Source: a virus
DNA length: 64,000 nt
Reading direction: 5' to 3' (one strand)
Virus record (IMG/VR): IMGVR_UViG_3300028197_001024
Location: 10,468-74,467 of that record
The position numbers and the translations under genes were made by a program. Positions 1,103 through 63,915 of the stretch are shown in pieces. Below the pieces are notes generated by a model. It was not told the DNA's origin. It did not search any database and saw nothing but the letters and a program-made list of their open reading frames with translations. The stretch's first letter is position 1. Each line of letters starts with the position of its first letter.

Positions 1103-1104
1103 AT

Positions 1105-2175: not shown

Positions 2176-3287
2176 AAAGAATTTACTTATCACCACCTCA
2201 TATGTCAGGTAAAGAACTTGACTACATAAAAGAAGCCTTTGATCAAAATTGGATTGCACCGATAGGACCTCATCTTAATTTATTTGAAGAAAAGGTAAAA
2301 GAATATACTGGTGCTAAGCACGCAGTAGCTGTTACTTCAGGTACTGCCGGTATTCATTTAGGATTAAATGTATTAGGAGTAGGAGAAGGTGACTATGTAA
2401 TATGTTCTTCTTTAACATTTATAGGAACTGTAAATCCAATATTATATTGTGGAGCTGAGCCTATTTTTATAGATTCGGAAGAAGGGTCATGGAATATGGA
2501 TCCTCTTTTATTAGAAAAGGCAATACTTAATTCTTCTGCTATAGGTAAAAAACCTAAAGCTATTATACCTGTTCATATTTTTGGTATACCTTGTAATATG
2601 GACGCAATAAAAAAATTATCAAATGAATATGACATACCTATTCTTGAAGATGCAGCAGAAAGTCTGGGATCTAAATTTAATAATCAACATACTGGAACCT
2701 TTGGCACTATTGGGGTTTATTCTTTTAATGGAAATAAATTATTATCTACCTCTGGTGGTGGAGTAATAATAACAGATAATAAAGAAAAGGCTAACAAGAT
2801 GAGGTTCTTGTCTACACAGGCAAAAGATCCTATGCCATATTATCATCACACTGAAATAGGATATAATTATAGAATGAGTAATGTACTTGCTGCTATTGGG
2901 GTTGGTCAAATGGAAGTAATAGAAGATAGAATCAAAAGGACTAGAGAAATGAATGAAACTTATAGAAAGGAATTAGGAAAATATTTTTATTCATTTCAAG
3001 AAGAGTTAGAAACAGATAGGTCTAACATGTGGTTAACATGTGCTATCTTAAATGCTGAAAATAAACCAGATGATTTAATTGCTCATTTAGAAAAAGATAA
3101 CATTGAAGCAAGAAGAATTTGGAAGCCTATGCATGAACAGCCAATTCTAACTAAGTATTTGAAATATATAAATGGAAATAGTTCTTTATTATTTTTACAA
3201 GGTATATGTTTACCATCTGGGTCTAATATGACTGATGTAGATTTAAAAAGAGTAATAAGGTCAATAAAAACATTTTTTAACAAATGA
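2172..3287 (+). CDS. DegT/DnrJ/EryC1/StrS family NDP-sugar aminotransferase (PglE-like)
   Basis: IYLSPPHM, SGTAGIHL, EDAAESLGS, SFNGNK PLP lysine, GYNYRMSN, CLPSG. Confidence 0.93.
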   Translation: MKRIYLSPPHMSGKELDYIKEAFDQNWIAPIGPHLNLFEEKVKEYTGAKHAVAVTSGTAGIHLGLNVLGVGEGDYVICSSLTFIGTVNPILYCGAEPIFIDSEEGSWNMDPLLLEKAILNSSAIGKKPKAIIPVHIFGIPCNMDAIKKLSNEYDIPILEDAAESLGSKFNNQHTGTFGTIGVYSFNGNKLLSTSGGGVIITDNKEKANKMRFLSTQAKDPMPYYHHTEIGYNYRMSNVLAAIGVGQMEVIEDRIKRTREMNETYRKELGKYFYSFQEELETDRSNMWLTCAILNAENKPDDLIAHLEKDNIEARRIWKPMHEQPILTKYLKYINGNSSLLFLQGICLPSGSNMTDVDLKRVIRSIKTFFNK

Positions 3288-4180
3288 TAAATTTTGAAGA
3301 TTTCAAATTATTAGAGTCTTATATAGGAGAAGAAAACTTTGAAATTTTACTAGAAAAAAATCTTACTAGTGAAATTAACAAAAAGATTAAATTTGGTGTT
3401 GTGATGGCAACTCATAAGATAGCAGATGGTAGCGCTCAGACAGGCAGACAGAAGTACATGGATACACCTGCTATATTAAAAGATTCTTTAGGTTCAATCA
3501 AAAACCAAAAGTATGATAATTATGTAGTTTATTTAATTGGGGATAAATATGACGGTGACGAAGAAATTAAGACTGTAATGGATAGCGTAATTCCTAAAGG
3601 TAAACTTAAATATCACAATCTATCTACACCCGGTGAAAGAAATAAAGGTTTTACTAAAAAACAATTTAGATATACTGCAGGCTGTGGTGCAGTAAATAAA
3701 GGTCTACAAATGGCAAAGAATGATGGTTGTGATTATATTGTTAGACTTGATCATGATGATAAATGGACACCTAATCATTTAGAACTTTTAGCAAAAGCAT
3801 ACACACAGTACCCTGAATTAGCATATGTATTTACTAGAAGCCGTAAAAAGGTAGATGCAACAAATAGTTCAAAAAAGTTTATGTACCAACCTAGAGATGA
3901 AAGACATACTAATTTAATAGAGCCTAATAATCTAGGATACACTCACGGTGATGTTAGTCATTCTGCAGTTTCATGGAGACCTTCTATGTGTGGAGATCTA
4001 AGGTATCGTGATGCTGATGCTCAATGTAATACCGAACCTAAAATATCTAAAGAAAAAACTAATCCTGCTGACGTTGATATGTTTAATAGAATGATGAAAG
4101 CTATAAAGGATAAAGGTCACAAATACATGTACATACCAAAACTTACCAGTTTCTATAGAAACAGAAAAGGTAAATTCTAA
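3284..4180 (+). CDS. GT2 family glycosyltransferase with possible capsid-targeting N-terminus
   Basis: GVVMATH, SIKNQKY, AVNKGL, RLDHDDKW (DxD) and HLE motifs; N-terminus MINFEDFKLLES. Confidence 0.75.
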   Translation: MINFEDFKLLESYIGEENFEILLEKNLTSEINKKIKFGVVMATHKIADGSAQTGRQKYMDTPAILKDSLGSIKNQKYDNYVVYLIGDKYDGDEEIKTVMDSVIPKGKLKYHNLSTPGERNKGFTKKQFRYTAGCGAVNKGLQMAKNDGCDYIVRLDHDDKWTPNHLELLAKAYTQYPELAYVFTRSRKKVDATNSSKKFMYQPRDERHTNLIEPNNLGYTHGDVSHSAVSWRPSMCGDLRYRDADAQCNTEPKISKEKTNPADVDMFNRMMKAIKDKGHKYMYIPKLTSFYRNRKGKF

Positions 4181-4181
4181 T

Positions 4182-4191
4182 GAATATATAA
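4182..4191 (+). promoter_or_regulatory. Putative late promoter GAATATATAA
   Basis: Same motif precedes many virion genes in the window. Confidence 0.55.
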
Positions 4192-4214
4192 AAAAACAAT
4201 AAAAATTAACTATT

Positions 4215-4391
4215 ATGGAAAAATTTGAAGAAATTAAAGCACTTATCGAATCAGTAGGTGAAGACGTAGATAAGTTCTATGCTAAAGGTAACAAAGCAGC
4301 TGCTGTGAGAATTAGAAAATCAATGCAAGAAGTTAAGAATCTTGCACAAGAATTAAGATTACACGTCCAAGAGACTAAGAACAATATGTAA
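4215..4391 (+). CDS. Histone H1-like protein (Hc1 family, Bacteroidota type), 58 aa; not in the ORF track
   Basis: Translated by hand: MEKFEEIKALIESVGEDVDKFYAKGNKAAAVRIRKSMQEVKNLAQELRLHVQETKNNM; KGNKAAxxRxRK signature. Confidence 0.8.
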   Translation: MEKFEEIKALIESVGEDVDKFYAKGNKAAAVRIRKSMQEVKNLAQELRLHVQETKNNM

Positions 4392-4410
4392 CCTTACATA
4401 ACCACCTTTA

Positions 4411-4443
4411 AAAGGGCTATCTTTAATTAGATAGTCCTTTTTT
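4411..4443 (+). terminator. Rho-independent terminator
   Basis: AAAGGGCTATCT-ttaatt-AGATAGTCCTTT followed by a T tract. Confidence 0.75.
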
Positions 4444-4467
4444 AGTTTTTATTATCCTATTATACTT

Positions 4468-4494
4468 GAAACTTTTTTTAAAACTTCTATATAA
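4468..4494 (+). promoter_or_regulatory. Putative middle promoter AAAC-N17-TATAA driving the sugar/DNA-modification operon
   Basis: GAAAC, 17 nt, TATAA; same geometry at 11 other sites. Confidence 0.6.
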
Positions 4495-4514
4495 TAATAA
4501 ATCAGTTAATTTAT

Positions 4515-5066
4515 ATGGAAAGGTGCTTAATATTAGATTTTGACGATACTTTAGTTTCAACTATAGATACTCATGCAAATTCTTGGAAACTTGCAATAGA
4601 AAGAGTTCTAAATAGAGATATTCCTATAGAAACAATAATGTCAGATATTAATTATGGCATGGACGTTCTATTAAAGAAATATCAACTAACCGAAAAGGAA
4701 TCTAAATTAGCACAAGATTATAAAAGAAAAATATTTTCAAAGAATCTCCATAAAACCAAAATAAATCAATTACTTTTATGGGTAATTAAAAATTCTAAAT
4801 TTGAAAAAGTTATTATAGCTTCTAATTCATCTAGAGAAAATGTAGATAGAATTATGGCTTACCATAATATAAGCCCTGATTTATTCGATCTTATTGTAAC
4901 TAGAGATGATGTTAAAAATAAAAAGCCACACTCAGAAATGGCAGATTTAATTTTTTCAGTATTTCATGGTTATGAACCTAATGATTTTCTTATGGTTGGT
5001 GATTCAGAAGTAGATTCAACATTCGCACTTAAAAACAAAATGAAATGCATACTGGTAAAGTTTTAG
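4515..5066 (+). CDS. HAD-family phosphatase
   Basis: DFDDTL motif I, SNS motif II, KKP and GDSEVD motifs. Confidence 0.88.
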   Translation: MERCLILDFDDTLVSTIDTHANSWKLAIERVLNRDIPIETIMSDINYGMDVLLKKYQLTEKESKLAQDYKRKIFSKNLHKTKINQLLLWVIKNSKFEKVIIASNSSRENVDRIMAYHNISPDLFDLIVTRDDVKNKKPHSEMADLIFSVFHGYEPNDFLMVGDSEVDSTFALKNKMKCILVKF

Positions 5067-5791
5067 TAGGAAATAGTGGAGATAGAGTATATCTTCAAGA
5101 TGACAAAGTTATTAAAGAAGCAGGTGTTTATCCTATAAAGTTTAAACAACAAATGGATTGGTTAGCAAACTGTACCCATCCTAATTTTATAAAAATTAAA
5201 CCTATTTCAGATACTTCATTTGAAATGAAAAAGTACCCTACATGGTATGACAAGATTTGTGAACAGCCTTTAATTAAATCAATTGATCAATTGGATGATC
5301 TTATTCATATTGCTAATGATTTTGATGGATATGGTGCTGATGTAGATACAAGATCATATTTAGATAAATTAGAAGGTAGAACCGGGTATAAGTATGAAGG
5401 TAATTTAGATGCGGCATCTTCATGGGGTTTTGTACACGGAGACTTAACAGTAAGCAATATTCTTTATGATAAAGATTTTATATTTATAGATCCAAGAGGC
5501 ACAGAAGAACAGAATTATTATGATTATGGAAAACTGATGCAATCATTTGTAATGAAATATGAGGCCCATATATACAATGAAAGGAATTCTAAATATCTTA
5601 AGTTCTGTAGAGAAGCTGAAAATATAATGTATGAATGGTATGACGAATATCAATTAAAATTCTTTTTAGCAGTTCACCTATTAGGGGCCGTGCCTTTCTT
5701 TGAGCTAAATGAAAGATATGAATTGGCTGGTATGTTCCTTAAAAAAGGTCATGAATTATTTGATGAATTAGAAATAAAATATAGTAAATGA
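5045..5791 (+). CDS. APH/choline-kinase-fold phosphotransferase (probable sugar kinase)
   Basis: GNSG, HGDLTVSNIL, FIDPRG, YDYGKL. Confidence 0.75.
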   Translation: MHTGKVLVGNSGDRVYLQDDKVIKEAGVYPIKFKQQMDWLANCTHPNFIKIKPISDTSFEMKKYPTWYDKICEQPLIKSIDQLDDLIHIANDFDGYGADVDTRSYLDKLEGRTGYKYEGNLDAASSWGFVHGDLTVSNILYDKDFIFIDPRGTEEQNYYDYGKLMQSFVMKYEAHIYNERNSKYLKFCREAENIMYEWYDEYQLKFFLAVHLLGAVPFFELNERYELAGMFLKKGHELFDELEIKYSK

Positions 5792-6492
5792 AAAGAGTAA
5801 GTAAAGCAATTATATTAGCAGCAGGTCGTTCAACAAGATATGGCAAAAACAAATTAGTAGATCCTATCTTAGGTAAATCAACTGTTGAATATTGTATTGA
5901 ATTTTGTATTGAGAATGGAATAGAAGATTGCTATATTACAATCAGTAAAGCAGATTTCTTTTTTAAAGATAACGTAAAACTTTCTCATCCTATTATTGAA
6001 AAACTAAACAAATACAAAAAGGATATTAATATCTTTTATGAATTTCAAAAGGATGATGAATATGGACCAGGCGCCGCTATAAAGGTTTGGTCTGGTAAAT
6101 TTAATGAAGCTTTCTTATGTTTATTTGGAGATAATTACTACCAAGGAAATATAGGATTAGAATATCATGATCCAAACAGTACAGTTGTTACTTATAAAGA
6201 TTATGAAACAAGAGCTAGGAATTTACAATTAGCATCTATATTAGAAAATGTTGTTATTGAAAAACCGCATGGAATTGTTTCAGGAAGGTACTTCTGTGGT
6301 TATATGATATTTTCAAAAGAAGCATTTAATAATCTTGACAGTATTAAAATGTCAAATAGAAATGAATATGAAATTACCCATTTGATTAACTCAATGGATA
6401 ATTTAAAATTTGAAGAATTAGATATATGTTGGTATGACTTAACATATGAAAATGATAAAGAAGTAATAGAAGAATTAATAAAAACATGTTAA
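5788..6492 (+). CDS. Sugar-1-phosphate nucleotidyltransferase (RmlA-like fold)
   Basis: AIILAAGRSTRY, FGDN, IEKP, SNRNEYEIT. Confidence 0.85.
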   Translation: MKRVSKAIILAAGRSTRYGKNKLVDPILGKSTVEYCIEFCIENGIEDCYITISKADFFFKDNVKLSHPIIEKLNKYKKDINIFYEFQKDDEYGPGAAIKVWSGKFNEAFLCLFGDNYYQGNIGLEYHDPNSTVVTYKDYETRARNLQLASILENVVIEKPHGIVSGRYFCGYMIFSKEAFNNLDSIKMSNRNEYEITHLINSMDNLKFEELDICWYDLTYENDKEVIEELIKTC

Positions 6493-7755
6493 ATGGAAAA
6501 TGTTAAAAAAATAGGTTTCTTTAAACTAGGTAAAGCGATTAAGTTTAATGAAAACAGTTGGAGTGCAATCGGTGGTGATTGTGAACCTAAACAATTAATC
6601 TGTTCAATTGCAAAAAGAAACCCTAATATTGAATATTGGTTATTAAGCCCAAATGATTTAGGTAAGTTTAGAGCTAAACAAAAACCTAAAGTAAATTCTT
6701 TATTTGGCCCTCCTCCTACAGATGAACCCGTAGTTCCTAATAATATTAAGGAATTTCATTCAACTATGAAGGAGAGAAAATCTACTGATGAAACTGTTGA
6801 AATTATTCAAGGTTTAGATTTAGATTTTATTTTCTTTTATACTGGTCCAACAAGTACCGTTAATATTCCAGAGTATATTAATAAGAAAGATGGTACTGGT
6901 CAAGTTAAGTCATTAGACTTCTTTAAGTATTATGCTGCTCCTATTATTAAATCAATGAATGAGTTGGAAAAGAAAGTTCCTATTGTTGGTTTACTTGTTG
7001 ATAACCGTTATATTCTTGCATGTAAAGACTGGGGAATTAATAATAGACCAACTTATTACTTAGCACAAAATACATTTACTAAAGAAGAACAATATTTCTG
7101 TAACCCACCACTAAGAGATGTTAAAACTATTACATCTACTTATGAATATTCAGGCATTGAAACGGTATTCTTATTAGATAAGAAAAGATATGATACTGAT
7201 GAATTATTTAAAATGAAAAAGACTGATTCATTTATGATGTTACAGAATCAAGGTAAAGGTTCAGGTGGAATGGATCGTTGGGATCCAGTAAAAGAATATA
7301 TTGTTGATCAAGAAATAGAGACTGATATTTACGGAAAATGGGATGATGAGATTAAGGAAATGTATCCTAAATGGTTTAAAGGAGAAACGAGAATTGAAAC
7401 AATGACCGATGAATTACTTGGTACTAAATATACATTCTGTGTACCTATTAAAGAAGGTATGGTAACCTCTAAGTATGCCGAAATGCTACACTATGGTATT
7501 ATACCATTCTTACACCCGTCTTACGACACCGACTTTAATGTCTTTCCAGAAGGTCATTTTATTAGATGTAAATCAGCAGAGGATTTAAAAAAGAAAATTG
7601 AATTCTTAAATGCAAACCCAGAGCATTATAAGAAATTATTTTATAACCTACAAGAAAAGTATCTTAAGGATTCTTATTATACCGGAGAACATGTAGACAA
7701 CAAGATCTGGGAATCTTATGAACGAGTAACTAAAACTGAAACTATAAATGTATAA
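6493..7755 (+). CDS. GT-B glycosyltransferase resembling T4 beta-glucosyltransferase (candidate DNA glycosyltransferase)
   Basis: C-terminal DIYGKW...VTSKYAEML..IIPFLHPSYDT...SAEDLKKKIEFL parallels the BGT C-domain; N-terminal KIGFFKLG; operon context. Confidence 0.6.
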   Translation: MENVKKIGFFKLGKAIKFNENSWSAIGGDCEPKQLICSIAKRNPNIEYWLLSPNDLGKFRAKQKPKVNSLFGPPPTDEPVVPNNIKEFHSTMKERKSTDETVEIIQGLDLDFIFFYTGPTSTVNIPEYINKKDGTGQVKSLDFFKYYAAPIIKSMNELEKKVPIVGLLVDNRYILACKDWGINNRPTYYLAQNTFTKEEQYFCNPPLRDVKTITSTYEYSGIETVFLLDKKRYDTDELFKMKKTDSFMMLQNQGKGSGGMDRWDPVKEYIVDQEIETDIYGKWDDEIKEMYPKWFKGETRIETMTDELLGTKYTFCVPIKEGMVTSKYAEMLHYGIIPFLHPSYDTDFNVFPEGHFIRCKSAEDLKKKIEFLNANPEHYKKLFYNLQEKYLKDSYYTGEHVDNKIWESYERVTKTETINV

Positions 7756-8770
7756 TTCCGAAACAAAAATCCTAGTCACTGGTGGTGCTGGGTTCGTTGG
7801 TACAAATTTTATTAACGATTTATTAAATAGAGGTCATAATCCAAAATGCATTGCGGTTATTGATAACATGGAGCACGGTACTTATATTGCAAAGGTACAT
7901 GACCAAATTGAAAATTTTCATAAAGTAGATATTAGAAATCAATATGTAGAAAACATTATCCAAGAGTTTTCACCCGATTATGTTTACCACTTTGCTGGTT
8001 TAGTTTCTATTTATGACTGCCATGAAGATCCGTATGAAGCCGTAGATAATAATATCTTAGGAAGTATTAATGTAATGAATGGTTGTGTAAAGGCAGATGT
8101 AAAAAGAATTATCTTTAGTGAAACTTCTGCAGTATATGAAAATTGTGAAATGCCTAAAGAAGGATTTAACGAAAAGCAATCTGATCCTACTACAATTTAT
8201 TCTACTACTAAAGCATGCCTTGCTCTATTGGCAGAATCATATCAGAGAACTAAAGGTTTAAATTATACTGCATTAAGATACTTTAATGTTGCAGGGCCTC
8301 TACAAGATTATAATAGAACCATCCCACCTGTATTTGCTGGGTTTATTTTAAGAATTAAAGGTAATCATAATCCTATAGTGTTTGGTGATTATATGAAAGC
8401 AAGAGATTATATTGATGTATCTGATGTTAATGCATTTCATATTCTTTGTATGGAAAATGAAAACACTGCAAACCAAACATTTAATTTAGGTACTGGTAAA
8501 ATGACAAACTTAATGGATCTTAAAAATATGATTGGTGAGATTATGGGAGTTGGTGAACCTACATTTGATCACTATGATCCTATTGCAGGTGAAGCTCTAA
8601 ATATTAGAGGAGATATTTCTAAAGCTAAGTCAATGGGATGGGAACCTAAAAAAGATATCAGAGATACGATAAAAGAAACGATAGTTTATCTTGAAGAAGA
8701 AATTAACCAAGGGACTATTGATCCACTAACATTTATGGAAAATTTAGAAATCGAAAAAGTAAAAATTTAA
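7748..8770 (+). CDS. NAD-dependent NDP-sugar epimerase/dehydratase (GalE-like SDR)
   Basis: TGGAGFVG, YSTTK (YxxxK), LRYFNVAG, RDYIDVSD, FNLGTG. Confidence 0.9.
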   Translation: MYNSETKILVTGGAGFVGTNFINDLLNRGHNPKCIAVIDNMEHGTYIAKVHDQIENFHKVDIRNQYVENIIQEFSPDYVYHFAGLVSIYDCHEDPYEAVDNNILGSINVMNGCVKADVKRIIFSETSAVYENCEMPKEGFNEKQSDPTTIYSTTKACLALLAESYQRTKGLNYTALRYFNVAGPLQDYNRTIPPVFAGFILRIKGNHNPIVFGDYMKARDYIDVSDVNAFHILCMENENTANQTFNLGTGKMTNLMDLKNMIGEIMGVGEPTFDHYDPIAGEALNIRGDISKAKSMGWEPKKDIRDTIKETIVYLEEEINQGTIDPLTFMENLEIEKVKI

Positions 8771-8771
8771 T

Positions 8772-10034
8772 ATGGAAAAAGAATTAAAATGGGGTACTAT
8801 GATTCCGTTAATCGGTGGGAGTGCAATAGGTTGTAAAAAATCTGCAGGTAATGAGCCAGCATTTCATTTAAGCTATGAAGCAATGGCTGCTAATGAAAGT
8901 CATATCGAAAAATATTGGCCAGAAGTACCTATGTACAGATTAGATCATGAAGATTTAGATATACCTGAGAAAACATTTCAAGAAGTAGATTATGTAAATT
9001 CTGTTTGCCCGTGTGCAGGTTTGTCACAGTTAAATTCTGCGAAAGGTAGTGCATCATCTAGAGGATCCGATGCGGTTCAAAATCAATGGATGTATAATTC
9101 AGCAGAGTATGTTTTGGAGAATGTTAAACCTAAAGTACTTTGGGGAGAAAATGCACCAGGGCTTTTTACTAAAATGGGAGAAGGTGTTGTTGACAATCTT
9201 AAAGCCATCGGTGAGAAATATGGATATAGCTTTTCATTAATTAAAACTAACACTGAGTTGCATGGAATTCCACAAAGAAGAATAAGAACATTTTATTTCT
9301 TTTGGAATACACCAACAGTTCCTATGTTAAGTTGGAAGTTTAGAGAAAAGAAAAATCTTATTGATTATCTTAATGAAATACCAGAAGATGCTACACAACA
9401 GGATATGTTTATGGTTGAAGGCAAAGTCAGTGATCATTTTAAACCTTACGAATATGTTTTAGAAAAAGAAGGTTTAACGCATTCTGAATTTGCTGCCAAA
9501 TTTAAAAAGGGTACTATCGCTCAATATCTAGAAAAGAATGAATTAATACCTGATTGTATTAAATGGTTAGAAAAACATTATCCTAAAAGAGGGTTTTCAA
9601 ATAAAAAATCTACAAAGACTTTTATTGATATGCTAGAACACCAAGAATACAAAACGAGCCAAGGTTTAGGTTACTGGGATGCATCACCGCATTTCTTCCA
9701 TGATTCTTTTTCTGCCCTTATAGGTAGAAACATGTTTAATGGTGTTCATCCTATAGAAAACAGATATCTTAATGTAAGAGAAATGCTTCACTTAATGGGG
9801 CTACCTTTAGATTTTGGTATTGAAAGTTCAAGGCAAGTAAATCATATTGCACAAAATGTACCAGTTACTACTGCAATGGATATGGCAGATGAAGTAAAGA
9901 AATTTTGTAATGGAGAAGCTAAGATGACAAATTACACCTTCTTAAAACAAGATAATACTAGTCACAAAATAATTGACTCTACTGAAATTGGAGCAGAACC
10001 AAAAAAGAAGTATAAAGTAAAAAGTATAATTTAA
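8772..10034 (+). CDS. DNA cytosine-C5 methyltransferase-fold protein with atypical motif I
   Basis: Motif IV CPCAGLS, VI ENAPGL, VIII PQRRIRTF, IX RYLNVRE, X IAQNVP; motif I reads IPLIGG rather than FxGxGG. Confidence 0.8.
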   Translation: MEKELKWGTMIPLIGGSAIGCKKSAGNEPAFHLSYEAMAANESHIEKYWPEVPMYRLDHEDLDIPEKTFQEVDYVNSVCPCAGLSQLNSAKGSASSRGSDAVQNQWMYNSAEYVLENVKPKVLWGENAPGLFTKMGEGVVDNLKAIGEKYGYSFSLIKTNTELHGIPQRRIRTFYFFWNTPTVPMLSWKFREKKNLIDYLNEIPEDATQQDMFMVEGKVSDHFKPYEYVLEKEGLTHSEFAAKFKKGTIAQYLEKNELIPDCIKWLEKHYPKRGFSNKKSTKTFIDMLEHQEYKTSQGLGYWDASPHFFHDSFSALIGRNMFNGVHPIENRYLNVREMLHLMGLPLDFGIESSRQVNHIAQNVPVTTAMDMADEVKKFCNGEAKMTNYTFLKQDNTSHKIIDSTEIGAEPKKKYKVKSII

Positions 10035-10041
10035 ATTAATT

Positions 10042-11058
10042 ATGAAAGATAAAGGATTAGCCATAGGTATATCAAGCCTAGAGTTTACTAATATCTTATG
10101 TAGTTATTATCCTAAAGGGATCAAAGAAAAATTTGATATCTATTTATTTGTGGATGATACTAAAATAGATTTAGAAAAGCTTCAGTGTATTTTTGAAGAG
10201 CATGATTTAGATATTTTTAAAAATGCAAAGATTATAATTTTAAATGACCTTTATAACCATTACATAGAAAAACATGGTTACGAAGGAAGATCAAAAGAAT
10301 TTCTATTAAGTCATGGCTGCCTCTTTAAAATATTAATGCCTATATACTTAAAGGAAAAATTTGGAGTAAAAAGAACATTAGTATCAGATGATGATGTATT
10401 TATTTTAAACGATCTTAGTTATATGTGGGATGAATATGAAGAGTTTGGCATAAAAAAGGAAAACTTATTTTACATTAGAAATAAAGATAAGTATGAAGTC
10501 ATGGATTGTTTTAACGGTATTTTTGAATCTAATTTTAGCTTAGATGAAATGAATGCCCTTTCCATAAATGCAGGCAATATAATATATGGAGAAGATCCTA
10601 AATTAGAATATTACTTTGAGAGATTTATGAAACACCCATTTATACATCATCAGTATTTTAATTTTACTGGGTATACAAGTTGGACTGTAGAACAAAGATT
10701 CCATCACTTTAATGTTCATAGGTATTTAGCAGAAGGAAGAAAGGTTAAATTTACTGAAAGTAAAGACTTAAGATTAATGCAGAATAGAGACAAGATGATG
10801 AAAGCAGGTACACCACCAGACAAATATCTTAAAGTAGTTGTACCTTCTATAATTCATTATGCAATAGGTGTAAAGAAGCCTCTATGGTTAAATGATTTTT
10901 TACCAGGATTAGAATGGAGATACGGTTTTAAGTATGAAGCAAAATACGAACTTAAAAATATCTTATACGATAAAAATTGGTCACCGCCTTCGTTTAAAAG
11001 TATACAAAAGAATGGATTTATATTAAAAAAGGAATTAAAAACAAAATCAATATTTTAA
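10042..11058 (+). CDS. Putative GT-A fold glycosyltransferase
   Basis: VSDDDVFIL DxD motif, INAG, EQ and IIHY elements as in GT8-like proteins; operon context. Confidence 0.55.
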   Translation: MKDKGLAIGISSLEFTNILCSYYPKGIKEKFDIYLFVDDTKIDLEKLQCIFEEHDLDIFKNAKIIILNDLYNHYIEKHGYEGRSKEFLLSHGCLFKILMPIYLKEKFGVKRTLVSDDDVFILNDLSYMWDEYEEFGIKKENLFYIRNKDKYEVMDCFNGIFESNFSLDEMNALSINAGNIIYGEDPKLEYYFERFMKHPFIHHQYFNFTGYTSWTVEQRFHHFNVHRYLAEGRKVKFTESKDLRLMQNRDKMMKAGTPPDKYLKVVVPSIIHYAIGVKKPLWLNDFLPGLEWRYGFKYEAKYELKNILYDKNWSPPSFKSIQKNGFILKKELKTKSIF

Positions 11059-11084
11059 AAGATAAAATTACAAAAAGAAAATAG

Positions 11085-11882
11085 ATGAAAGATAGAAAAA
11101 GTATACCTGTTATTGGAGTTCCTGTAGTAAATGGAGTTCATTGGGTAAAAAGATTAATGCTATCAGTTGATTACCCTGTAGATAATTTATTTATAATTAA
11201 TAATAATGGAAGAGGAGAAATTAATGAAGAATTAGATAAGTTAAAAAATATATCTAATAAATTTATTAAGAATATACACATTACACATTTACCTAGTAAT
11301 TTAGGAGTCCCGGCAGCTTGGAATTTAATTATTAAATCATTTTTAATGGAGCCTTATTGGATAATTTCTAACCATGATGTTGCCTTTTCACCTGGTTTAT
11401 TAGAAGAATTTTCAAATATGGCTCAGGATAAACAAATAAGTATGATTCATCCTAGAGCAGGTGTATTTGGTGTAGGTACATATGATTTATTTGCTATAAC
11501 TGAAATAGGGGTAAAAACGATAGGATTATTTGATGAAAATTTATATCCTGCTTATGGAGAAGATACTGATTATATAATGAGAGTTCTAAATTTAAATCCA
11601 AAGGTTTGTAGAGGATTGACTTATACTTATTTACATGGAAAAGAAATAGCCGATTGTGTCAATTATGAAAATAATGGTCGACAAACGTCTAAAGAAGAAC
11701 CTCAAATGCAAGAAAAATTAAATAATGTTAATTATAAAAATTACAAATATTTAGATGAAAAATGGGGAGAGCATTGGAGAGGTTTAACTCCTTATAAATT
11801 TCCTTTTAATAATAAAGAATATTCTAATTCTTACACTTCATGGGATATAGATTATATAAGAGAAAAATATTTAGACTTTTAA
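11085..11882 (+). CDS. GT2-like glycosyltransferase
   Basis: NLGVPAAWN, NHDV, IGLFDENLYPAYGEDTDY. Confidence 0.75.
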   Translation: MKDRKSIPVIGVPVVNGVHWVKRLMLSVDYPVDNLFIINNNGRGEINEELDKLKNISNKFIKNIHITHLPSNLGVPAAWNLIIKSFLMEPYWIISNHDVAFSPGLLEEFSNMAQDKQISMIHPRAGVFGVGTYDLFAITEIGVKTIGLFDENLYPAYGEDTDYIMRVLNLNPKVCRGLTYTYLHGKEIADCVNYENNGRQTSKEEPQMQEKLNNVNYKNYKYLDEKWGEHWRGLTPYKFPFNNKEYSNSYTSWDIDYIREKYLDF

Positions 11883-12805: not shown

Positions 12806-13924
12806 ATGACAGAGGAATTACAAAAAATCAACGAAGAAGCATCAAAATTCTATAATTACGAACAGGCTGTTAAATTAATGCTTAACTCTATTTACGGTGC
12901 ATTTGGTAATCCTTATTTTTATTTCTTTAATGTTGATATTGCAGAAACTATTACACTCCAAGGTAAAGATGCAATTCTATATACTGAACAATTAGTTAAT
13001 AAGTATTTTAAGGAATTCTGGCATAAGGATTTACCAGCTCATGCTGCTATGGGTATTACTGTAACTGGTAAAATTGAAAAACCTGTAGGTATTTATATTG
13101 ATACAGATTCAGTGTATGTTAAATTTGATGAAGTAATTCAAAAATCAGAAGGCTGGGTTGGTGATGAAAAAGAATTTATACTTAAGCTTTATAAGGTTAG
13201 GTTAAATGGTTACATAGAAAAGATTCTACAAAAATATGCAGATGATAATAATGCAGAAAACTTTTTATCTTTTGAATTAGAAAGTATTGCTAAAAATGCA
13301 ATATGGTTGGCAAAGAAAAAGTATATGCAGAATATAGTTTGGAAGGATCCTGATATTCATTACGATGATCTCTCTAAGATTAGTTCAAAAGGATTTGAAA
13401 TCATTCAGTCATCTACCCCTATTTTTGCAAGAGAAAAACTAAAAGAACTATTAACTTATATCTTTTCTGTTAGTGAATTAGATATGGGAGCCTTTGCTTC
13501 TTTACTTAAAGATGTTAAAAGGCAATTTAGATTAGCCAATGTTGATCAAATTAGTTTTTCAAGAAAAGTAAATAATTATCAAAAGTATATTGTAAATGAT
13601 TATGAGCAATTTGAAATTGCATCAAAATGTCCAATTGGTGTAAGATCTGCAGGCTATCATAATTACTTACTAAATAATTCAGGCAAGAAAGGTAAATATC
13701 AACCACTAGGAAATGGTGAAAAATGTAAAATGTATTTTTCTGAAGATAAGTCATGTGATGTGTTTGCTTATGCACCAGGTGATTTTCCTTATGAGTTCGC
13801 GCCTAAAATAGATTATGATAGGCAATTTGAAAAAACAATATTGGATCCTATAAACAGAGTTGTTACTGCTATGGGTTTTAAAGGATTTAACAGAAATCTT
13901 ATTTACACAACCAGCCTATTTTAA
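12806..13924 (+). CDS. Family B DNA polymerase, C-terminal subunit of a split enzyme (gp43B-like)
   Basis: Motif B KLMLNSIYG, motif C YIDTDS, KKKY, thumb region; no exonuclease domain or motif A. Confidence 0.9.
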   Translation: MTEELQKINEEASKFYNYEQAVKLMLNSIYGAFGNPYFYFFNVDIAETITLQGKDAILYTEQLVNKYFKEFWHKDLPAHAAMGITVTGKIEKPVGIYIDTDSVYVKFDEVIQKSEGWVGDEKEFILKLYKVRLNGYIEKILQKYADDNNAENFLSFELESIAKNAIWLAKKKYMQNIVWKDPDIHYDDLSKISSKGFEIIQSSTPIFAREKLKELLTYIFSVSELDMGAFASLLKDVKRQFRLANVDQISFSRKVNNYQKYIVNDYEQFEIASKCPIGVRSAGYHNYLLNNSGKKGKYQPLGNGEKCKMYFSEDKSCDVFAYAPGDFPYEFAPKIDYDRQFEKTILDPINRVVTAMGFKGFNRNLIYTTSLF

Positions 13925-26019: not shown

Positions 26020-26496
26020 ATGAGCATCAAAAAGGTAAAGCCTACTTCTAAGTCCGGATTTAAGCAAGGGTATTATAATCCTATAAATCCTCAAAAGTAT
26101 ATAGGACCTCATCCTATCATATATAGAAGTAGTTGGGAAAGAAAATTTTGCCATTGGTGCGACCACAATGAAGATGTAATAAAATGGGCATCTGAACCTT
26201 TTTCTATAAAATATTTTAATATGCTAGATAAAAAGTTTCATAATTATTATCCTGATTTTTATATTAAAATGGATAAGGACGGAATAACAGAAGAATATGT
26301 AGTTGAAATAAAACCAAAGGCACAATTACAAAAACCAAAGGCACCAAAAAGAAAAACAGCAAAGGCATTAAAAAACTTTCAACATGGTTATGAAACTTAT
26401 GTTAGAAACCTTTGTAAAACTGAAGCATTAAATAAAATGGCTAAACAAAGAAATTTTAAAGTAATGCTTTTAACAGAAGACTCAAAATTATTCTAA
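26020..26496 (+). CDS. gp4: Head completion nuclease (gp4, TnsA-like)
   Basis: YRSSWERKF, WASE, YYPDF, VEIKP. Confidence 0.88.
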   Translation: MSIKKVKPTSKSGFKQGYYNPINPQKYIGPHPIIYRSSWERKFCHWCDHNEDVIKWASEPFSIKYFNMLDKKFHNYYPDFYIKMDKDGITEEYVVEIKPKAQLQKPKAPKRKTAKALKNFQHGYETYVRNLCKTEALNKMAKQRNFKVMLLTEDSKLF

Positions 26497-58983: not shown

Positions 58984-59466
58984 ATGAATAAAATTATCTT
59001 AGTAGGTAAAGCTGCTGCTGGAAAAGATCATATGAGAAAGATCCTTAGCGGTCGAGGTTTTCAATATGGAATTTCATATACAACTCGACCGCCTAGAGAA
59101 GGTGAAATAGATGGTAAAGATTATTTCTTTTTAACTGAAGATATGTTTAAAAGAAAAATCAATCAAGGGTATTGGTATGAATGGATAGAATTTAACGGTT
59201 GGTATTATGGGACTAGCCAAAGACAGTTTACTACAAGCTGTAATCTTTTTATTATGACTCCTAAAGGTATAGGTCATATTGATCCAGTTGATAGGAAAGA
59301 ATGTACAATCATTTATCTGAATGTTCCTGAAAAAATTAGAAGGGAAAGATTAGAGGAAAGAGGGGATAGTTTTAGTGATTCAATAGATCGAAGAATGGAG
59401 GCAGATAACAAAGACTTTGAAAACTTTACTGATTTTGATTTAGAGATAAACAATTCTAACTTTTAA
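58984..59466 (+). CDS. gmk: Guanylate kinase
   Basis: GKAAAGKD, SYTTRPPREGEIDGKDYFF, WYYGT. Confidence 0.88.
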   Translation: MNKIILVGKAAAGKDHMRKILSGRGFQYGISYTTRPPREGEIDGKDYFFLTEDMFKRKINQGYWYEWIEFNGWYYGTSQRQFTTSCNLFIMTPKGIGHIDPVDRKECTIIYLNVPEKIRRERLEERGDSFSDSIDRRMEADNKDFENFTDFDLEINNSNF

Positions 59467-59484: not shown

Positions 59485-60102
59485 ATGAGTAAATTTATTA
59501 TCATAGAGGGTACTGATAACACAGGTAAAGATACACAACAAGATCTAATAATTAAAAAGATGAATAATAATGTATTTCATAAATTACATTATTCATCTCT
59601 TCCTTTTAAAGATGATAAAAATAAACATGCTACTTACTCTAAAAAGATGTATGATGGTATGTTTAAATTAATGATGAAATCTAAATTAGGTGAACAGCCT
59701 ACTGATGAACCTATCAATCTTATATTTAATAGATCCCATTTAGGTGAAACTGTTTATTCTCCACTTTATAGAGGTTACTCTGGTGATTATGTTTTTGATA
59801 TTGAAAAGAAATACACTAAAGCATTAAGAGAAGATTTATATTTAATTACATTAACAAATGATCCTCATACTATTCTAAAAAGAGATGATGGTAAATCATT
59901 CTATGGTAATGAAGAAGAAGTAAAGGCAGAGGTTGATGGTTTTAATAGAGCTCATCGTTTAAGTACAATTAAAAATAAGTTATTACTAAATATTGGTACT
60001 ATGAGTGCTGAAGAAGTATCAAATATTATTATAGATTTTCTTAATCATAAAAATACTATCACTGGAGATTCTAAACAATTAAATATATTCAACGATGTGT
60101 AA
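59485..60102 (+). CDS. Thymidylate-kinase-like dNMP kinase (candidate modified-dCMP kinase)
   Basis: IIIEGTDNTGKDT P-loop, FNRSHLGETVYSPLYR. Confidence 0.75.
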   Translation: MSKFIIIEGTDNTGKDTQQDLIIKKMNNNVFHKLHYSSLPFKDDKNKHATYSKKMYDGMFKLMMKSKLGEQPTDEPINLIFNRSHLGETVYSPLYRGYSGDYVFDIEKKYTKALREDLYLITLTNDPHTILKRDDGKSFYGNEEEVKAEVDGFNRAHRLSTIKNKLLLNIGTMSAEEVSNIIIDFLNHKNTITGDSKQLNIFNDV

Positions 60103-60274
60103 AGCAGAAGATATATTATATGAAGCTCATAATGAAGGAATACGAGATGAGGTCCTTAATGAAAGTAGAAAATTATTAAATGAAGGTGGTAAATATACTT
60201 ATATGGAATTTGCTGACCGATTAGAAATAGCAATAAGAAACATTAGAGAAATAAAAAAAAATGAGAGTATTTAA
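60095..60274 (+). CDS. Small hypothetical protein, 59 aa; not in the ORF track
   Basis: MCKAEDILYEAHNEGIRDEVLNESRKLLNEGG...; overlaps both neighbours. Confidence 0.5.
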   Translation: MCKAEDILYEAHNEGIRDEVLNESRKLLNEGGKYTYMEFADRLEIAIRNIREIKKNESI

Positions 60275-61169
60275 AGGAGAGACATTTGCAGAGGCATATA
60301 ACTATGCACTAGGTAGTATTATTCATAATCCTAATTATGTATCATCACCAAGAGGTATGAAGATTAATGAAATATCAGATGCCGCTATTGTAATTGAAGA
60401 TCCTACGTTTTGTTTATATGACAATTCTCGTAGGAGTAGTCAATTTAAATATATTGCAGCAGAATTAGTTTGGTATTTCACTGGTCGTAAAGATGCTGAT
60501 TTTATTACACCTTATGCAAAATTCTGGGATCAGATTAAAAATAAAGATGGTTCAGTAAATTCAGCTTATGGTAATCTTATCTTCACTGAAGAATTAGAAG
60601 ATGGTAGAAATCAATATCGCTGGGCGTTAGATTCTTTAATTCAAGATAAAGATTCAAGACAAGCAATTTTACATTTCAATAAACCATCACATCAATGGTA
60701 TGGTAATAAAGATTTTGTATGTACGCTTAATGGCATATTTCAAATAAGAGATAATAAATTAAACTTTACTATTGATATGAGATCTAATGATCTTATCTTA
60801 GGTACACCTACGGATGTTGCATTCTTTTGTCTTTTACAAATACAAATGCTAGAACATTTAAGAAAATACTATCCTGAATTAGAATTAGGTACTTATACTC
60901 ATATTGCACATTCTTTACATTTATATGAAAGGCATTTTAATCTTGCGAGTGAAATGTTAGAAAAATCATTTAACCCTCAATCATTTCCAGATATGACAGA
61001 GTTTTTAATTGATCCAAACGGTAAACCCTTAGATGGTTTAAATCAATTAGAAGAAGAAATGATTCAGATGAATGATTTAGTTTTTAATGGTAATGCAAGT
61101 TACACTGTAGATAAACATGATGATCTTTTACATCAATGGATATCTGATGCAATCTTTGGAAATATATAA
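60261..61169 (+). CDS. Thymidylate-synthase-fold dCMP-modifying enzyme (gp42-like dCMP hydroxymethylase or hydroxylase)
   Basis: ELVWY, NSAYG, DSRQA, DFVCT catalytic Cys, MRSNDLILGTPTD (Asp at the dCMP specificity position), SLHLYERH. Confidence 0.78.
   Translation: MRVFKGETFAEAYNYALGSIIHNPNYVSSPRGMKINEISDAAIVIEDPTFCLYDNSRRSSQFKYIAAELVWYFTGRKDADFITPYAKFWDQIKNKDGSVNSAYGNLIFTEELEDGRNQYRWALDSLIQDKDSRQAILHFNKPSHQWYGNKDFVCTLNGIFQIRDNKLNFTIDMRSNDLILGTPTDVAFFCLLQIQMLEHLRKYYPELELGTYTHIAHSLHLYERHFNLASEMLEKSFNPQSFPDMTEFLIDPNGKPLDGLNQLEEEMIQMNDLVFNGNASYTVDKHDDLLHQWISDAIFGNI
61160..61169 (+). promoter_or_regulatory. Putative late promoter
   Basis: AAATATATAA just upstream of 61187. Confidence 0.5.
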
Positions 61170-61186: not shown

Positions 61187-62665
61187 TTGAAGTACTTAAA
61201 ATTATTTGAACAGTTCGTAAATGAAAAGAAGCCAGCCGGTGCTCCTGATTGGCATGACTCTGATGCACCTGATGCAAACGGTAGATTTAAAGATCTTTCT
61301 ATAAAGGATTTAGCAGCATGGTTAATTAAAACTAGAAAGAAAGATGTTAAAAAGATTAGCGGTTCTTTAACTCAGCAAATAGTTTTTAACAGAAAGAGTG
61401 ATCCTAAGTATGCTGAAAAGATGGAGAAAACCAGAAAAGAAGTATATAAACAATTAGGTAGAGAAGATTTATTAAAAGAATCAGATATTACTATTGGTGG
61501 TAAAGAATATAAGCTTATTCAAAAAGGAAGTAAAATTACTCTAATTAATACTAAGTTATCAGCTGATAAGTTTATATTTAGAAATGAAAAAGAATTTAAA
61601 GCATGGGCTGATGACCAAGTAGAACCAATTGGTGGAACTCAATCATCTCATTTTGGTATTAGTGAATCGGTTGATCATAAAAGCTATTTAAATAAAGTTA
61701 ATTTTTTATTAGCAGGAGAAAAGATAGAAGGTCTTACTGGTAAAAATAATAAAAGAATTTATGGCAAAATAAATGATGTTTGTTTAGAAAAGCTATATAA
61801 TTCATTTTATGCAAAAGGTGACTATAAAAAAGTATTAGAAGTTAATTCAGAATTGCCTCTTATTTATTATGGTGGAAATTCAAAAGAGGGGTTAGATTTT
61901 ATAAAGAAGTACAGCATATCAGAAGATGTAATGTATAACTCACCTAAAGCAATGAAGATTAGTGGTAATAAGAGTGATTTTTATAAAATGTTTAAAGATA
62001 CTGATTTTATTCCAAAGGCGGTTTATAAAAAGGAAGATGCAAAAGATTTACAATTTCCTGTGATTGCAAAACCAGATGATGGGCATTCAGGTTTAGGTAT
62101 TGAAATATTTGATACTTATGAAGACTTAGAAAAAAGCAAAGGTAAATTTGAAAACTATTCAGAAGCAAAAGATCTTGATAGAGAATTTAGAGTTTTATTA
62201 ATGAATGATAATCCTGTATTAGTTCATGAAAGAGTTTCTTTAAATGAAAATGAAATTAAAGATAAAGAAGCAGATGAACAAACTGAATTTACTTATGTTG
62301 ATCAGGATATAAATAAGATAGATTTTATGGATAAAGTAAATGATATATCCAGAAAGGTTAGAGAAAAATTAAAACTTGGACTTTGGTCAATTGATTTAAT
62401 GATTGATAAAAGTGGAGACTGTTGGGTTGCTGAAATTAATTCTGCTTCTGGTATGGCTGCAGATAAAATGGCAAGAGTATATGTTAAAGTGTATGAAGAT
62501 TTTTATGGAGAGAAATTACCTAAAGAACTAAAGAATCATTTAAATGAAGAATACATCAAGCCTATTTATAAAATTAATTTAAAGGAAAATGCAGAACAGA
62601 TTAAAAGATCTAAGTGCAGTGTAAACTACCAAGATGTCATAGACGGTAAAGAAACAATTCTTTAA
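61187..62665 (+). CDS. Multidomain protein with C-terminal ATP-grasp (RimK-like) ligase and CTS-like N-terminus
   Basis: PVIAKPDDGHSGLGI, EFRV, IDLMID, AEINSASG; N-terminus MKYLKLFEQFVNE (TTG start). Confidence 0.7.
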   Translation: MKYLKLFEQFVNEKKPAGAPDWHDSDAPDANGRFKDLSIKDLAAWLIKTRKKDVKKISGSLTQQIVFNRKSDPKYAEKMEKTRKEVYKQLGREDLLKESDITIGGKEYKLIQKGSKITLINTKLSADKFIFRNEKEFKAWADDQVEPIGGTQSSHFGISESVDHKSYLNKVNFLLAGEKIEGLTGKNNKRIYGKINDVCLEKLYNSFYAKGDYKKVLEVNSELPLIYYGGNSKEGLDFIKKYSISEDVMYNSPKAMKISGNKSDFYKMFKDTDFIPKAVYKKEDAKDLQFPVIAKPDDGHSGLGIEIFDTYEDLEKSKGKFENYSEAKDLDREFRVLLMNDNPVLVHERVSLNENEIKDKEADEQTEFTYVDQDINKIDFMDKVNDISRKVREKLKLGLWSIDLMIDKSGDCWVAEINSASGMAADKMARVYVKVYEDFYGEKLPKELKNHLNEEYIKPIYKINLKENAEQIKRSKCSVNYQDVIDGKETIL

Positions 62666-62750: not shown

Positions 62751-63284
62751 ATGCTTAAAGATTTAGAAATTCCTAAAGATTTTTATATAACATCTGATAC
62801 GTGGTTTGGAAGACCACAGATACTTCAAATTGCAAATAGAAAATTTAATGATGTAGATGAAATGAATGCTACACTTATTAAAAATTGGAATAAGGTTGTA
62901 AAAAAGAATGATATTATATTTCACTTAGGAAATTTCGCGTGGGATCCACAAACTGCTAGGCAAGTTTTAAAGAAACTCAACGGGCAAATCTATTTTATGA
63001 TAGGTAGTTCTGATGAGGCTTTTTTAGATGTTCAACATGAATTTGAAAATATATCTATATTAGAGGATCAAATTTTGGAATTACCTCAATTTGATTCTGT
63101 AATTTGCCATTATCCACTAGAGGCATGGAATGGTAAAGATTCAGGTACTCTTCATTTTCATGGTCATACAGTATTCTCTCATAAGACAGATTTATCTAAA
63201 ATGAATAGAATAAATGTATGTACAGATTTTTGGAATTATACACCAGTAAATTATTTAACTATTAAAGATTTTATAAATGAGTAA
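62751..63284 (+). CDS. Calcineurin-like metallophosphoesterase homologue with substituted metal ligands
   Basis: TSDTWFG, HLGNF, IGSSD, CHYP, HGH, INVCTD. Confidence 0.75.
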   Translation: MLKDLEIPKDFYITSDTWFGRPQILQIANRKFNDVDEMNATLIKNWNKVVKKNDIIFHLGNFAWDPQTARQVLKKLNGQIYFMIGSSDEAFLDVQHEFENISILEDQILELPQFDSVICHYPLEAWNGKDSGTLHFHGHTVFSHKTDLSKMNRINVCTDFWNYTPVNYLTIKDFINE

Positions 63285-63915
63285 AACAAAAAAGAAAACT
63301 TACAAAGAACTAGCGATTGAATTTAAAAAGACAAGAAATGAAAAGGTATATAATGAGTTATATGCTAAGATGAGGCCAGGATTATGGTCTTATGTTAATA
63401 ACATTGTAAAAGATCCTACTATCGCTAATGATATTGTATCAACAACATTAACAACTGTATATTTAAAAATAGATCAATACAATGAGGATTACCAAATTAC
63501 TACATGGGCATATCGTATTGCATATAATGAATGTATAGGTTGGATTAGATTTAGAAATAAGAAAATCAGTATGAATGTTTTTACTGATGCTGGTGTTGAA
63601 CCGCCTATGGAACCTTCTATTACTTTAAGAACAGATTCTTACTTACCTAAAACTGAGATTGATTGGGAAGATGAGCAGACAATATTAGATGAGCAAGTCA
63701 GATTAACACATGAGGCAATTAACGCGTTACCTCCAATGTATAAGAGATATATGATTGAAAGATTTTTAAATCATAGGTCTTATCAAGATATTTTAGAGAT
63801 AATGCAAGAATCTGAAAAGGGTATAAACCTACAAACAGTTAAGAATAGAATATTTAGAGGGAGGAAAATAGTTAAAAAACAACTAGAAGGTATGAAACTT
63901 TTTGCTGAAGCCTAA
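63277..63915 (+). CDS. ECF-like sigma-70 family sigma factor
   Basis: Region 2 ANDIV...TTWAYRIAYN; region 4 AINALPPMYK...SYQDI...TVKNRIFRGRK. Confidence 0.85.
   Translation: MSKTKKKTYKELAIEFKKTRNEKVYNELYAKMRPGLWSYVNNIVKDPTIANDIVSTTLTTVYLKIDQYNEDYQITTWAYRIAYNECIGWIRFRNKKISMNVFTDAGVEPPMEPSITLRTDSYLPKTEIDWEDEQTILDEQVRLTHEAINALPPMYKRYMIERFLNHRSYQDILEIMQESEKGINLQTVKNRIFRGRKIVKKQLEGMKLFAEA

Follow-up and report, generated by a model that had tools for sequence, protein, structure and literature searches.

A probable T4 gp42-type deoxycytidylate hydroxymethylase gene beside nucleotide kinase genes in a large uncultured T4-like phage

The 64,000 nucleotide stretch of DNA analysed here (the window) comprises bases 10468-74467 of the 74,467 bp IMG/VR viral contig IMGVR_UViG_3300028197_001024 (GC content about 30%), and essentially all of its genes lie on the + strand. 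Open reading frame (ORF) 60261-61169 encodes a thymidylate synthase (TS)-like protein; a preliminary description, made from the sequence alone, had proposed that this protein acts on deoxycytidylate (dCMP) rather than deoxyuridylate (dUMP) and that a dedicated kinase is encoded next to it. The genes that lie at this locus are the following:

58984-59466, + strand: guanylate-kinase-like deoxynucleoside monophosphate (dNMP) kinase; 160 amino acids (AAs), PF00625 9e-24 and phrog_1815 7.7e-34, 18 nt upstream of the thymidylate-kinase-like gene.
59485-60102, + strand: thymidylate kinase (TMPK)-fold nucleotide kinase, proposed 5-hydroxymethyl-dCMP (5hm-dCMP), possibly dTMP, kinase; 205 AAs, from phrog_761 and a fold search.
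60095-60274, + strand: conserved 59 AA ORF; shares 8 nt with the end of the kinase gene and 14 nt with the beginning of the TS-like gene.
60261-61169, + strand: dCMP hydroxymethylase-like enzyme (gp42 type; predicted 5hm-dCMP synthase); 302 AAs, from PF00303, PDB matches and signature residues.

The kinase gene had been said to lie upstream in the same operon as the TS-like gene, and it does belong with it to a tight gene string joined by overlapping ORFs. The 59 AA ORF, which has tblastn matches (43-81% identity) in about 27 of the 45 related loci, and the guanylate-kinase-like gene are additions to the genes listed previously.

The TS-like ORF matches PF00303 (Thymidylat_synt) at 1.4e-22 (80.6 bits, against a cutoff of 24.3), and its C154, E68, R133, R174, H220 and Y222 align with the conserved catalytic and phosphate-binding residues of the TS superfamily. 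Its best PDB matches in a phmmer search are T4 gp42 (8.8e-23) and the CMP hydroxymethylase MilA (3.4e-22), whereas true thymidylate synthases score only about 4e-10, twelve orders of magnitude worse. An Asp at the position of E. coli ThyA Asn177 is kept in 150 of 158 sequences (the top 150 homologues plus references), and because of this and the far higher gp42 and MilA scores the resemblance to gp42 is not due to chance. Its dN/dS of about 0.09-0.16, from comparison with close orthologues, shows that purifying selection acts on the gene. The motifs DFVCT (residues 151-155), NSAYG (100-104) and ELVWY (68-72), which had been said to match gp42, are all present, but the gp42 counterparts DFMCT, NSNYG and ELEWY are close rather than identical; residues 173-185 (nt 60777-60815) form the motif MRSNDLILGTPTD, whose gp42 counterpart is MRSNDVVFGFRND. 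The anticipated danger that automatic annotation would name the gene thyA is real, as Pfam and PHROGs both call it thymidylate synthase and RefSeq labels even T4 gp42 in this way.

The protein was aligned (L-INS-i) with E. coli ThyA, T4 gp42, RB69 gp48, SPO1 gp29, PaMx74 ThyA and others. The alignment is validated by RB69 gp48, which has in it an Asn at ThyA position 169, its published D169N. At ThyA positions 58, 94, 126, 143, 146, 147, 167, 169, 177, 207 and 209 the window's protein has E, Y, R, D, C, T, S, D, D, H and Y, respectively, the same as gp42 throughout; in gp42 numbering, Glu60, Ser94-x-Tyr96, Asp145, Cys148, Thr149, Ser169, Asp171, Asp179, His216 and Tyr218 all have identical equivalents. 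Its own D151, C154, D177 and D185 correspond to ThyA positions 143, 146, 169 and 177, and the signature residues are encoded as follows:

60561-60569, + strand: S101-A-Y103, the Ser-x-Tyr pair of the hydroxymethylation signature; gp42 Ser94/Tyr96.
60711-60722, + strand: D151-F-V-C154, the catalytic Cys with an Asp at position -3 from it; gp42 Asp145/Cys148, ThyA Leu143/Cys146.
60783-60791, + strand: S175-N-D177; the Ser is ThyA Ser167 and the Asp is ThyA Asp169.
60813-60815, + strand: Asp185 codon GAT, the cytosine-specifying residue; aligns with gp42 Asp179 and E. coli ThyA Asn177.

An Asp at the ThyA Asn177 position is known to confer dCMP specificity (PMC8670742, PMC13326640). Asp185 occupies this position, so the Asp in place of the TS Asn is where the preliminary description had put it and, together with gp42 and MilA as best matches, it supports dCMP rather than dUMP as the substrate. 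Park et al. described a gp42 ternary complex and a hydroxymethylation signature consisting of Asp145, which activates the substrate water, and Ser94-x-Tyr96 (PMC6400193); a gp42 D145N mutant forms no 5hm-dCMP (PMC6400193). The window's protein has both parts of this signature, D151-x-x-C154 and S101-A-Y103. Zhao et al. found that the preference for deoxyribose or ribose depends on Ser167 and Arg126', which are Ala and Lys in MilA (PMC5175136), and the residues present here, Ser175 and Arg133, are those of gp42 (Ser169 and Arg123') and not those of MilA. Lee et al. showed that RB69 gp48, DLP3 gp80 and others are flavin- and O2-dependent 5-hydroxy-dCMP synthases with a diagnostic Asn at ThyA position 169 (PMC13326640); because the ThyA Asp169 equivalent is retained in the window's protein, folate-type rather than flavin-type chemistry is expected of it. 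Three products had been left open for the enzyme, and of these 5-hydroxymethyl-dCMP fits the published residues, but 5-hydroxy-dCMP does not (the Asp169 equivalent is kept), nor does 5-methyl-dCMP (residue 151 is Asp, not Leu or Asn).

ORF 60261-61169 probably encodes a T4 gp42-type deoxycytidylate hydroxymethylase (EC 2.1.2.8), and the phage most likely replaces the cytosine in its DNA. As judged from the conserved residues, Cys154 would attack C6 of dCMP, and Asp185 would read and protonate the N3/N4 face of the cytosine; Glu68 would activate methylene-tetrahydrofolate, from which a one-carbon unit would pass to C5, and the exocyclic methylene would be resolved not by folate hydride but by a water held by Asp151 and Ser101/Tyr103, giving 5hm-dCMP. 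In the pathway that we infer, the TMPK-like protein would take 5hm-dCMP, and perhaps dTMP, to the diphosphate and would, with the guanylate-kinase-like enzyme, replace T4 gp1; the host NDP kinase would then make 5hm-dCTP, a gp56-like dCTPase would remove dCTP and supply dCMP, and the phage polymerase would build 5-hydroxymethylcytosine (hmC)-containing DNA. The pre-replicative route to a C5-modified dCTP that had been suggested is supported, with the kinase gene adjacent in the same tight string. The gp56-like gene lies elsewhere on the contig and recurs in five related contigs:

Contig 4951-5475, before the window: gp56-like dCTPase/dUTPase; BLASTP 6e-25 to T4 gp56, phrog 'NTP pyrophosphohydrolase'.

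The gp42 hydroxymethylation pathway has been textbook knowledge since T4, where the partners of gp42 (structures PDB 1B5E, 1B49 and 6A9A) are the gp56 dCTPase, the gp1 dNMP kinase and td. The window's protein is like gp42 in its TS fold and in all tested catalytic and specificity residues, and its phage is T4-like, has a gp56 homologue and has relatives with a canonical TS. It is unlike gp42 in its low overall identity (below), in a C-terminal extension of about 55 AAs that gp42 lacks, and in that the adjacent kinases are TMPK-fold and guanylate-kinase-like instead of gp1. This appears to be a known strategy in a new lineage, and the novelty, if any, would lie in the TMPK-fold kinase and in whatever is attached to the hmC. 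If the assignment is true, widespread uncultured large marine T4-like phages have cytosine-free, hmC-based DNA, which would affect the sequencing and amplification of such DNA and its recognition by restriction and CRISPR systems; the assignment would also correct a predictable thyA mis-annotation and add one more cytosine-modifying TS homologue that is accompanied by a TMPK-fold kinase.

A HMMER search of 1.8 billion representatives returned 6,043 relatives, 313 of them below 1e-30. In a second set of 189 family members, which includes 45 IMG/VR orthologues, the combination D-C-D-D at ThyA positions 143/146/169/177 is found in 182. The closest deposited phage homologues, both uncharacterised and both D-C-D-D, are those of the uncultured phage LR756500 (55% identity) and Bacillus phage G (gp319, 35% identity). 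A maximum likelihood tree rooted on canonical thymidylate synthases has PaMx74 as its first branch, followed by a 100/99-supported clade that contains the window's protein, gp42, RB69 gp48, SPO1 gp29 and phage G gp319; a phylogeny with gp42 and dCMP hydroxymethylases had been proposed as a check.

The gene order topoisomerase subunit, small ORFs, guanylate-kinase-like, TMPK-like, (small ORF), TS-like is found in the window and in about 37 of the 45 orthologous IMG/VR loci (51-90% identity of the TS-like proteins), the guanylate-kinase-like gene being syntenic in the same contigs as the TMPK-like/TS-like pair. A homologue of the TMPK-like kinase (49% identity) lies directly upstream of the TS-like gene in LR756500, and one lies 1.5 kb upstream in phage G (gp315, 'thymidylate kinase'); phage G also has an 'alpha-glucosyltransferase', gp313. 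In this AT-rich DNA, scans for sigma-70 promoters and terminators around the genes were uninformative (25 sites against 33 expected). Kinases are not nearby in L052 and other distant orthologous loci (51-60% identity), where gp46/47-like nuclease genes are followed by the TS-like gene and then by a dCMP-deaminase-family gene (L052:11106-11528); phages with modified cytosine have been described with this TS-like/dCMP-deaminase arrangement.

The kinase encoded by 59485-60102 matches phrog_761 at 2e-13 and PF02223 with 25.6 bits, below the cutoff of 27. Its sequence is clearly TMPK-like at the P-loop only, and a profile search against PDB sequences reaches the TMPK P-loop region with E 0.003. The AlphaFold (AF2) model has a pLDDT (predicted local distance difference test) of 77, and its top Foldseek matches are thymidylate kinases (E 5e-7 to 1e-5, template modelling score about 0.55-0.63) and B. 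subtilis YorR (3kb2). PDB entries 3kb2, 4s35 and 4gmd have been reported for the nucleotide kinases, none with an assigned substrate, beside the DLP3, RB69 and RL38J1 TS homologues (PMC13326640), and the fold search with the window's kinase returns the same entries. BLASTP matches to phage G gp315 (3e-8) and RB69 gp45 (3e-5) are weak, although significant. Purifying selection acts on the kinase gene as well as on the TS-like gene (dN/dS about 0.09-0.2 in close pairs).

The TMPK-fold kinase could be specific for hm-dCMP, or it and the guanylate-kinase-like protein may simply stand in for T4 gp1. A somewhat unlikely alternative is that the dCMP hydroxymethylase has a neighbour that is not dedicated to it, the TMPK-fold protein being the phage dTMP kinase or, as may also hold for RB69 gp45, the enzyme of some other step and another kinase phosphorylating 5hm-dCMP. 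The fold does match ordinary TMPKs, and in RB69 it is a gp1-type kinase, and not the TMPK-like gp45, that has been shown to phosphorylate modified dCMP (PMC13326640), gp45 having no assigned substrate; this counts against a dedicated role and makes the kinase the weakest link in the proposed pathway. The two genes are also not always one travelling unit: at L042 the identity to the window's proteins is 93% for the kinase and only 67% for the neighbouring TS-like protein (kinase dS 0.27, TS-like dN 0.33), a gap that suggests a recombination breakpoint between the kinase and TS-like genes when L042 is compared with the window. On the other side, the pairing is kept in LR756500 even at 49% (kinase) and 55% (TS-like) identity, TMPK-like kinases also adjoin the cytosine-modifying TS homologues of phage G, RB69, DLP3 and RL38J1, and the genes in the window are linked by overlapping ORFs. 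A gp1 homologue was not detected in seven records of the phage group, in a search with no positive control; as a negative on fragments this carries little weight.

A dCMP methyltransferase of the Xp12/PaMx74 kind, with the same folate chemistry and a hydride finish that would give 5-methyl-dCMP and 5-methylcytosine (5mC)-DNA, is an improbable alternative to the hydroxymethylase. PaMx74 is a phage with full 5mC replacement whose ThyA is a homologue of the Xp12 5mdCMP synthase, an enzyme that has been assayed. Natural 5mdCMP synthases have, like the window's protein, an Asp at ThyA position 177, the TS homologues of the Xp12/PaMx74 type also retain Asp169, TS N177D mutants methylate dCMP (PMC8670742), and the dCMP-deaminase gene next to the distant orthologues such as that of L052 is as reported for 5mC phages. 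The residues around the catalytic Cys are different, however: PaMx74 ThyA has Asn143/Pro147 where the window's protein and gp42 have Asp/Thr, and the methyltransferase type combines Asp177 with a non-acidic residue at 143, a rule that is correlative. With its Asp151 (not Leu or Asn) and its Ser-x-Tyr pair the window's protein has the residues of hydroxymethylation, which the D145N change abolishes in gp42. The Xp12/PaMx74 type is also linked to dihydrofolate reductase and deaminase genes, neither of which was found near the TS-like gene in the main synteny of the lineage, and PaMx74 ThyA lies outside the 100/99 clade of the hydroxymethylases.

A 5-hydroxy-dCMP synthase that depends on flavin and O2, as RB69 gp48 and DLP3 gp80 do, and that would feed an ether-linked cytosine glycosylation, is a very unlikely identity for the protein. 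The likeness to RB69 gp48, DLP3 gp80 and RL38J1 gp216 extends to the Asp at ThyA position 177, the acidic residue at 143, the neighbouring TMPK-like kinase, and sugar-activation and GT-B genes elsewhere, with a phosphatase/anomeric-kinase-like/nucleotidyltransferase/GT-B string that resembles the RB69 sugar module in architecture. All three enzymes have the Asn at 169 (Lee et al., NAR 2026, PMC13326640), but the window's protein keeps Asp177 in its place, as well as Gly181 and the Trp80 equivalent, all of which RB69 gp48 lost, and Asp is found at 169 in 45 of 45 orthologous loci as well as in the 182 family members counted above.

A uracil-nucleotide enzyme, whether the thymidylate synthase that the phage actually uses or a dUMP hydroxymethylase of the SPO1 gp29 kind, may be dismissed as almost certainly wrong: Pfam and PHROGs give the label thymidylate synthase, and SPO1 gp29 (Asn177 in the alignment) and two further Asn177 members lie in the same clade, but Asn177, His147, Leu143 and Trp83 of canonical ThyA are replaced in the window's protein by Asp185, Thr155, Asp151 and Ile, true synthases score far below gp42, and relatives of the phage have a separate thymidylate synthase. 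The related 181 kb contig G007, which has the same synteny and a TS-like orthologue 63% identical to the window's, also carries a canonical ThyA (PF00303 299 bits, 53% identical to E. coli ThyA, with L143/H147/D169/N177 and a Phe at 83), and the related contig G010 and LR756500 each have a ThyX alongside the Asp-type gene. Because of these separate ThyA and ThyX genes, the Asp-type protein appears not to be the thymidylate synthase of the lineage, a situation like that of T4 with its td and gene 42. The LR756500 ThyX match lies within a 577 AA open frame (276524-278152, - strand) and is in two pieces about 1 kb apart, which suggests that this ThyX holds an inserted element such as an intein or extra domain. 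No Tet/JBP, dCMP deaminase or ThyX gene was found on the 74 kb contig, which as a fragment gives this little weight.

Several points weigh against a gp42-type hydroxymethylase and a cytosine-free genome. Identity to gp42 is only about 30%, the signature rules come from a modest number of characterised enzymes, and PaMx74 is a presumed 5-methyl reference, on the grounds of a 5mC genome and of homology to Xp12, whose enzyme is the one that was assayed. The position of gp42 within the clade is unstable, as it is sister to P0043/P0102 in one tree and basal in another, and its placement is not settled because the branches are long. The Asn177 members P0057 and P0138 and the Asn169 RB69 gp48 are nested in the clade, so base specificity and cofactor have switched repeatedly, and the product assignment therefore rests on the residues and not on the tree. 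The gp56-like gene was not found in the complete relative LR756500, the contig represents only about 27% of its genome (CheckV), and the C5-cytosine DNA-methyltransferase-like gene at 8772-10034 would lack its ordinary substrate if cytosine were fully replaced.

This last gene lies about 50 kb from the TS-like gene in an operon of sugar and glycosyltransferase genes. The region 53-11882 of the window encodes a PseB-like dehydratase, a WbqC/GNAT protein, a DegT aminotransferase, three GT-A enzymes, a HAD phosphatase, an APH-like kinase, a nucleotidyltransferase, a GT-B enzyme, an epimerase and the C5-cytosine DNA-methyltransferase-like protein (PF00145 2.5e-19), the gene for which is inside the operon. 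Its candidate hmC user is the GT-B enzyme:

6493-7755, + strand: GT-B glycosyltransferase, candidate hmC user, in the sugar-nucleotide operon (about 4515-11882); AF2 pLDDT 61 (low confidence).

The best Foldseek matches of this low-confidence model are generic GT-B/GT4 enzymes (PimA, BshA and WaaG), with the T4 beta- and alpha-glucosyltransferases (BGT and AGT) at ranks 34 and 38. A relationship to T4 BGT was rejected (BLASTP E 0.32, hhalign probability 4%, a generic fold in a low-confidence model). Comparison by hhalign with the T4 and VPE25 beta-glucosyltransferases was not significant, and the sequence matches phage G gp313 only at E 0.76 and VPE25 b-gt only at E 0.006 over 71 residues. No T4-type alpha- or beta-glucosyltransferase is recognisable by sequence. 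The order of the genes in 4515-7755 (HAD phosphatase, APH-like kinase, nucleotidyltransferase, GT-B) is similar to that of the phosphatase/kinase/uridylyltransferase/arabinosyltransferase module of RB69 and DLP3, and similarity of the sugar-activation genes to RB69 gp52 and gp53 is at the motif level only (E 0.012 and 0.002).

Five related contigs are long enough to show whether the GT-B and TS-like genes occur together, and in each of them they do. Asp-type TS homologues adjoin annotated DNA glucosyltransferases in phage G and in Enterococcus phage VPE25, and a carbamoyltransferase in Xp15. From the co-occurrence, the generic GT-B fold and the phage G and VPE25 arrangements it is plausible that the distant sugar operon would decorate hmC, as had been suggested. 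The window's contig differs here from LR756500, in which no homologue of its GT-B, C5-methyltransferase-like or gp56-like genes was found. A more specific proposal, which we regard as tentative and somewhat doubtful, is that the module supplies hmC for an undescribed hypermodification, in which an unusual sugar, perhaps of the amino or acylamino kind, would be joined by the sugar genes to hmC in the DNA of an abundant marine jumbo-phage lineage, and the TMPK-fold kinase would be specific for the modified dCMP. The genes concerned would be those of about 4515-11882, namely the HAD phosphatase, APH-like kinase, nucleotidyltransferase, GT-B, epimerase, C5-methyltransferase-like and two GT-A genes, and the PseB, DegT and WbqC/GNAT genes of 53-4180 might also take part.

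The phage encodes virion and packaging proteins of the T4 type (gp15, gp20 portal, gp21 protease, gp23 capsid, gp17 terminase and gp18 sheath), and its replication genes include a gp44-type clamp loader, a UvsX-like recombinase, a DnaB-type helicase, a split family-B polymerase and a split topoisomerase II. Its portal is 62% identical to that of LR756500, whose genome is 462 kb, and is more distantly related to those of other huge uncultured phages and of the Lak megaphages of Prevotella, and many ocean metagenomes, Tara among them, hold homologues of the genes studied here. From this gene set, the portal relatives and the ocean homologues, the source appears to be a large, uncultured, marine T4-like phage; the host of the group is probably a member of the Bacteroidota.

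The two parts of the family-B DNA polymerase gene lie about 16 kb apart, at contig positions 5498-6904 (before the window) and at 12806-13924 of the window, with the exonuclease domain and the start of the polymerase domain in one ORF and the rest of the polymerase domain in the other; ribonucleotide reductase genes and the entire sugar/glycosyltransferase operon lie between them. Directly 3' of the TS-like gene is a gene for a RimK-like ATP-grasp protein (61187-62665) with an N-terminal region of about 225 AAs without known function, and in related contigs this gene is replaced, displaced or highly diverged (29-97% identity). Contig 4100-4936, before the window, encodes a DNA glycosylase of the Fpg/Nei family with an additional match to PF09292, the Neil1 DNA-binding domain (1.1e-06). 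There are two sigma-70-family (ECF-like) factors on the contig, one at contig 3014-3586 and one at 63277-63915 of the window. Finally, a protein with a TnsA-like endonuclease N-terminal domain (PF08722 1.3e-15) is encoded among the virion genes at 26020-26496 of the window, directly 5' of the portal gene.

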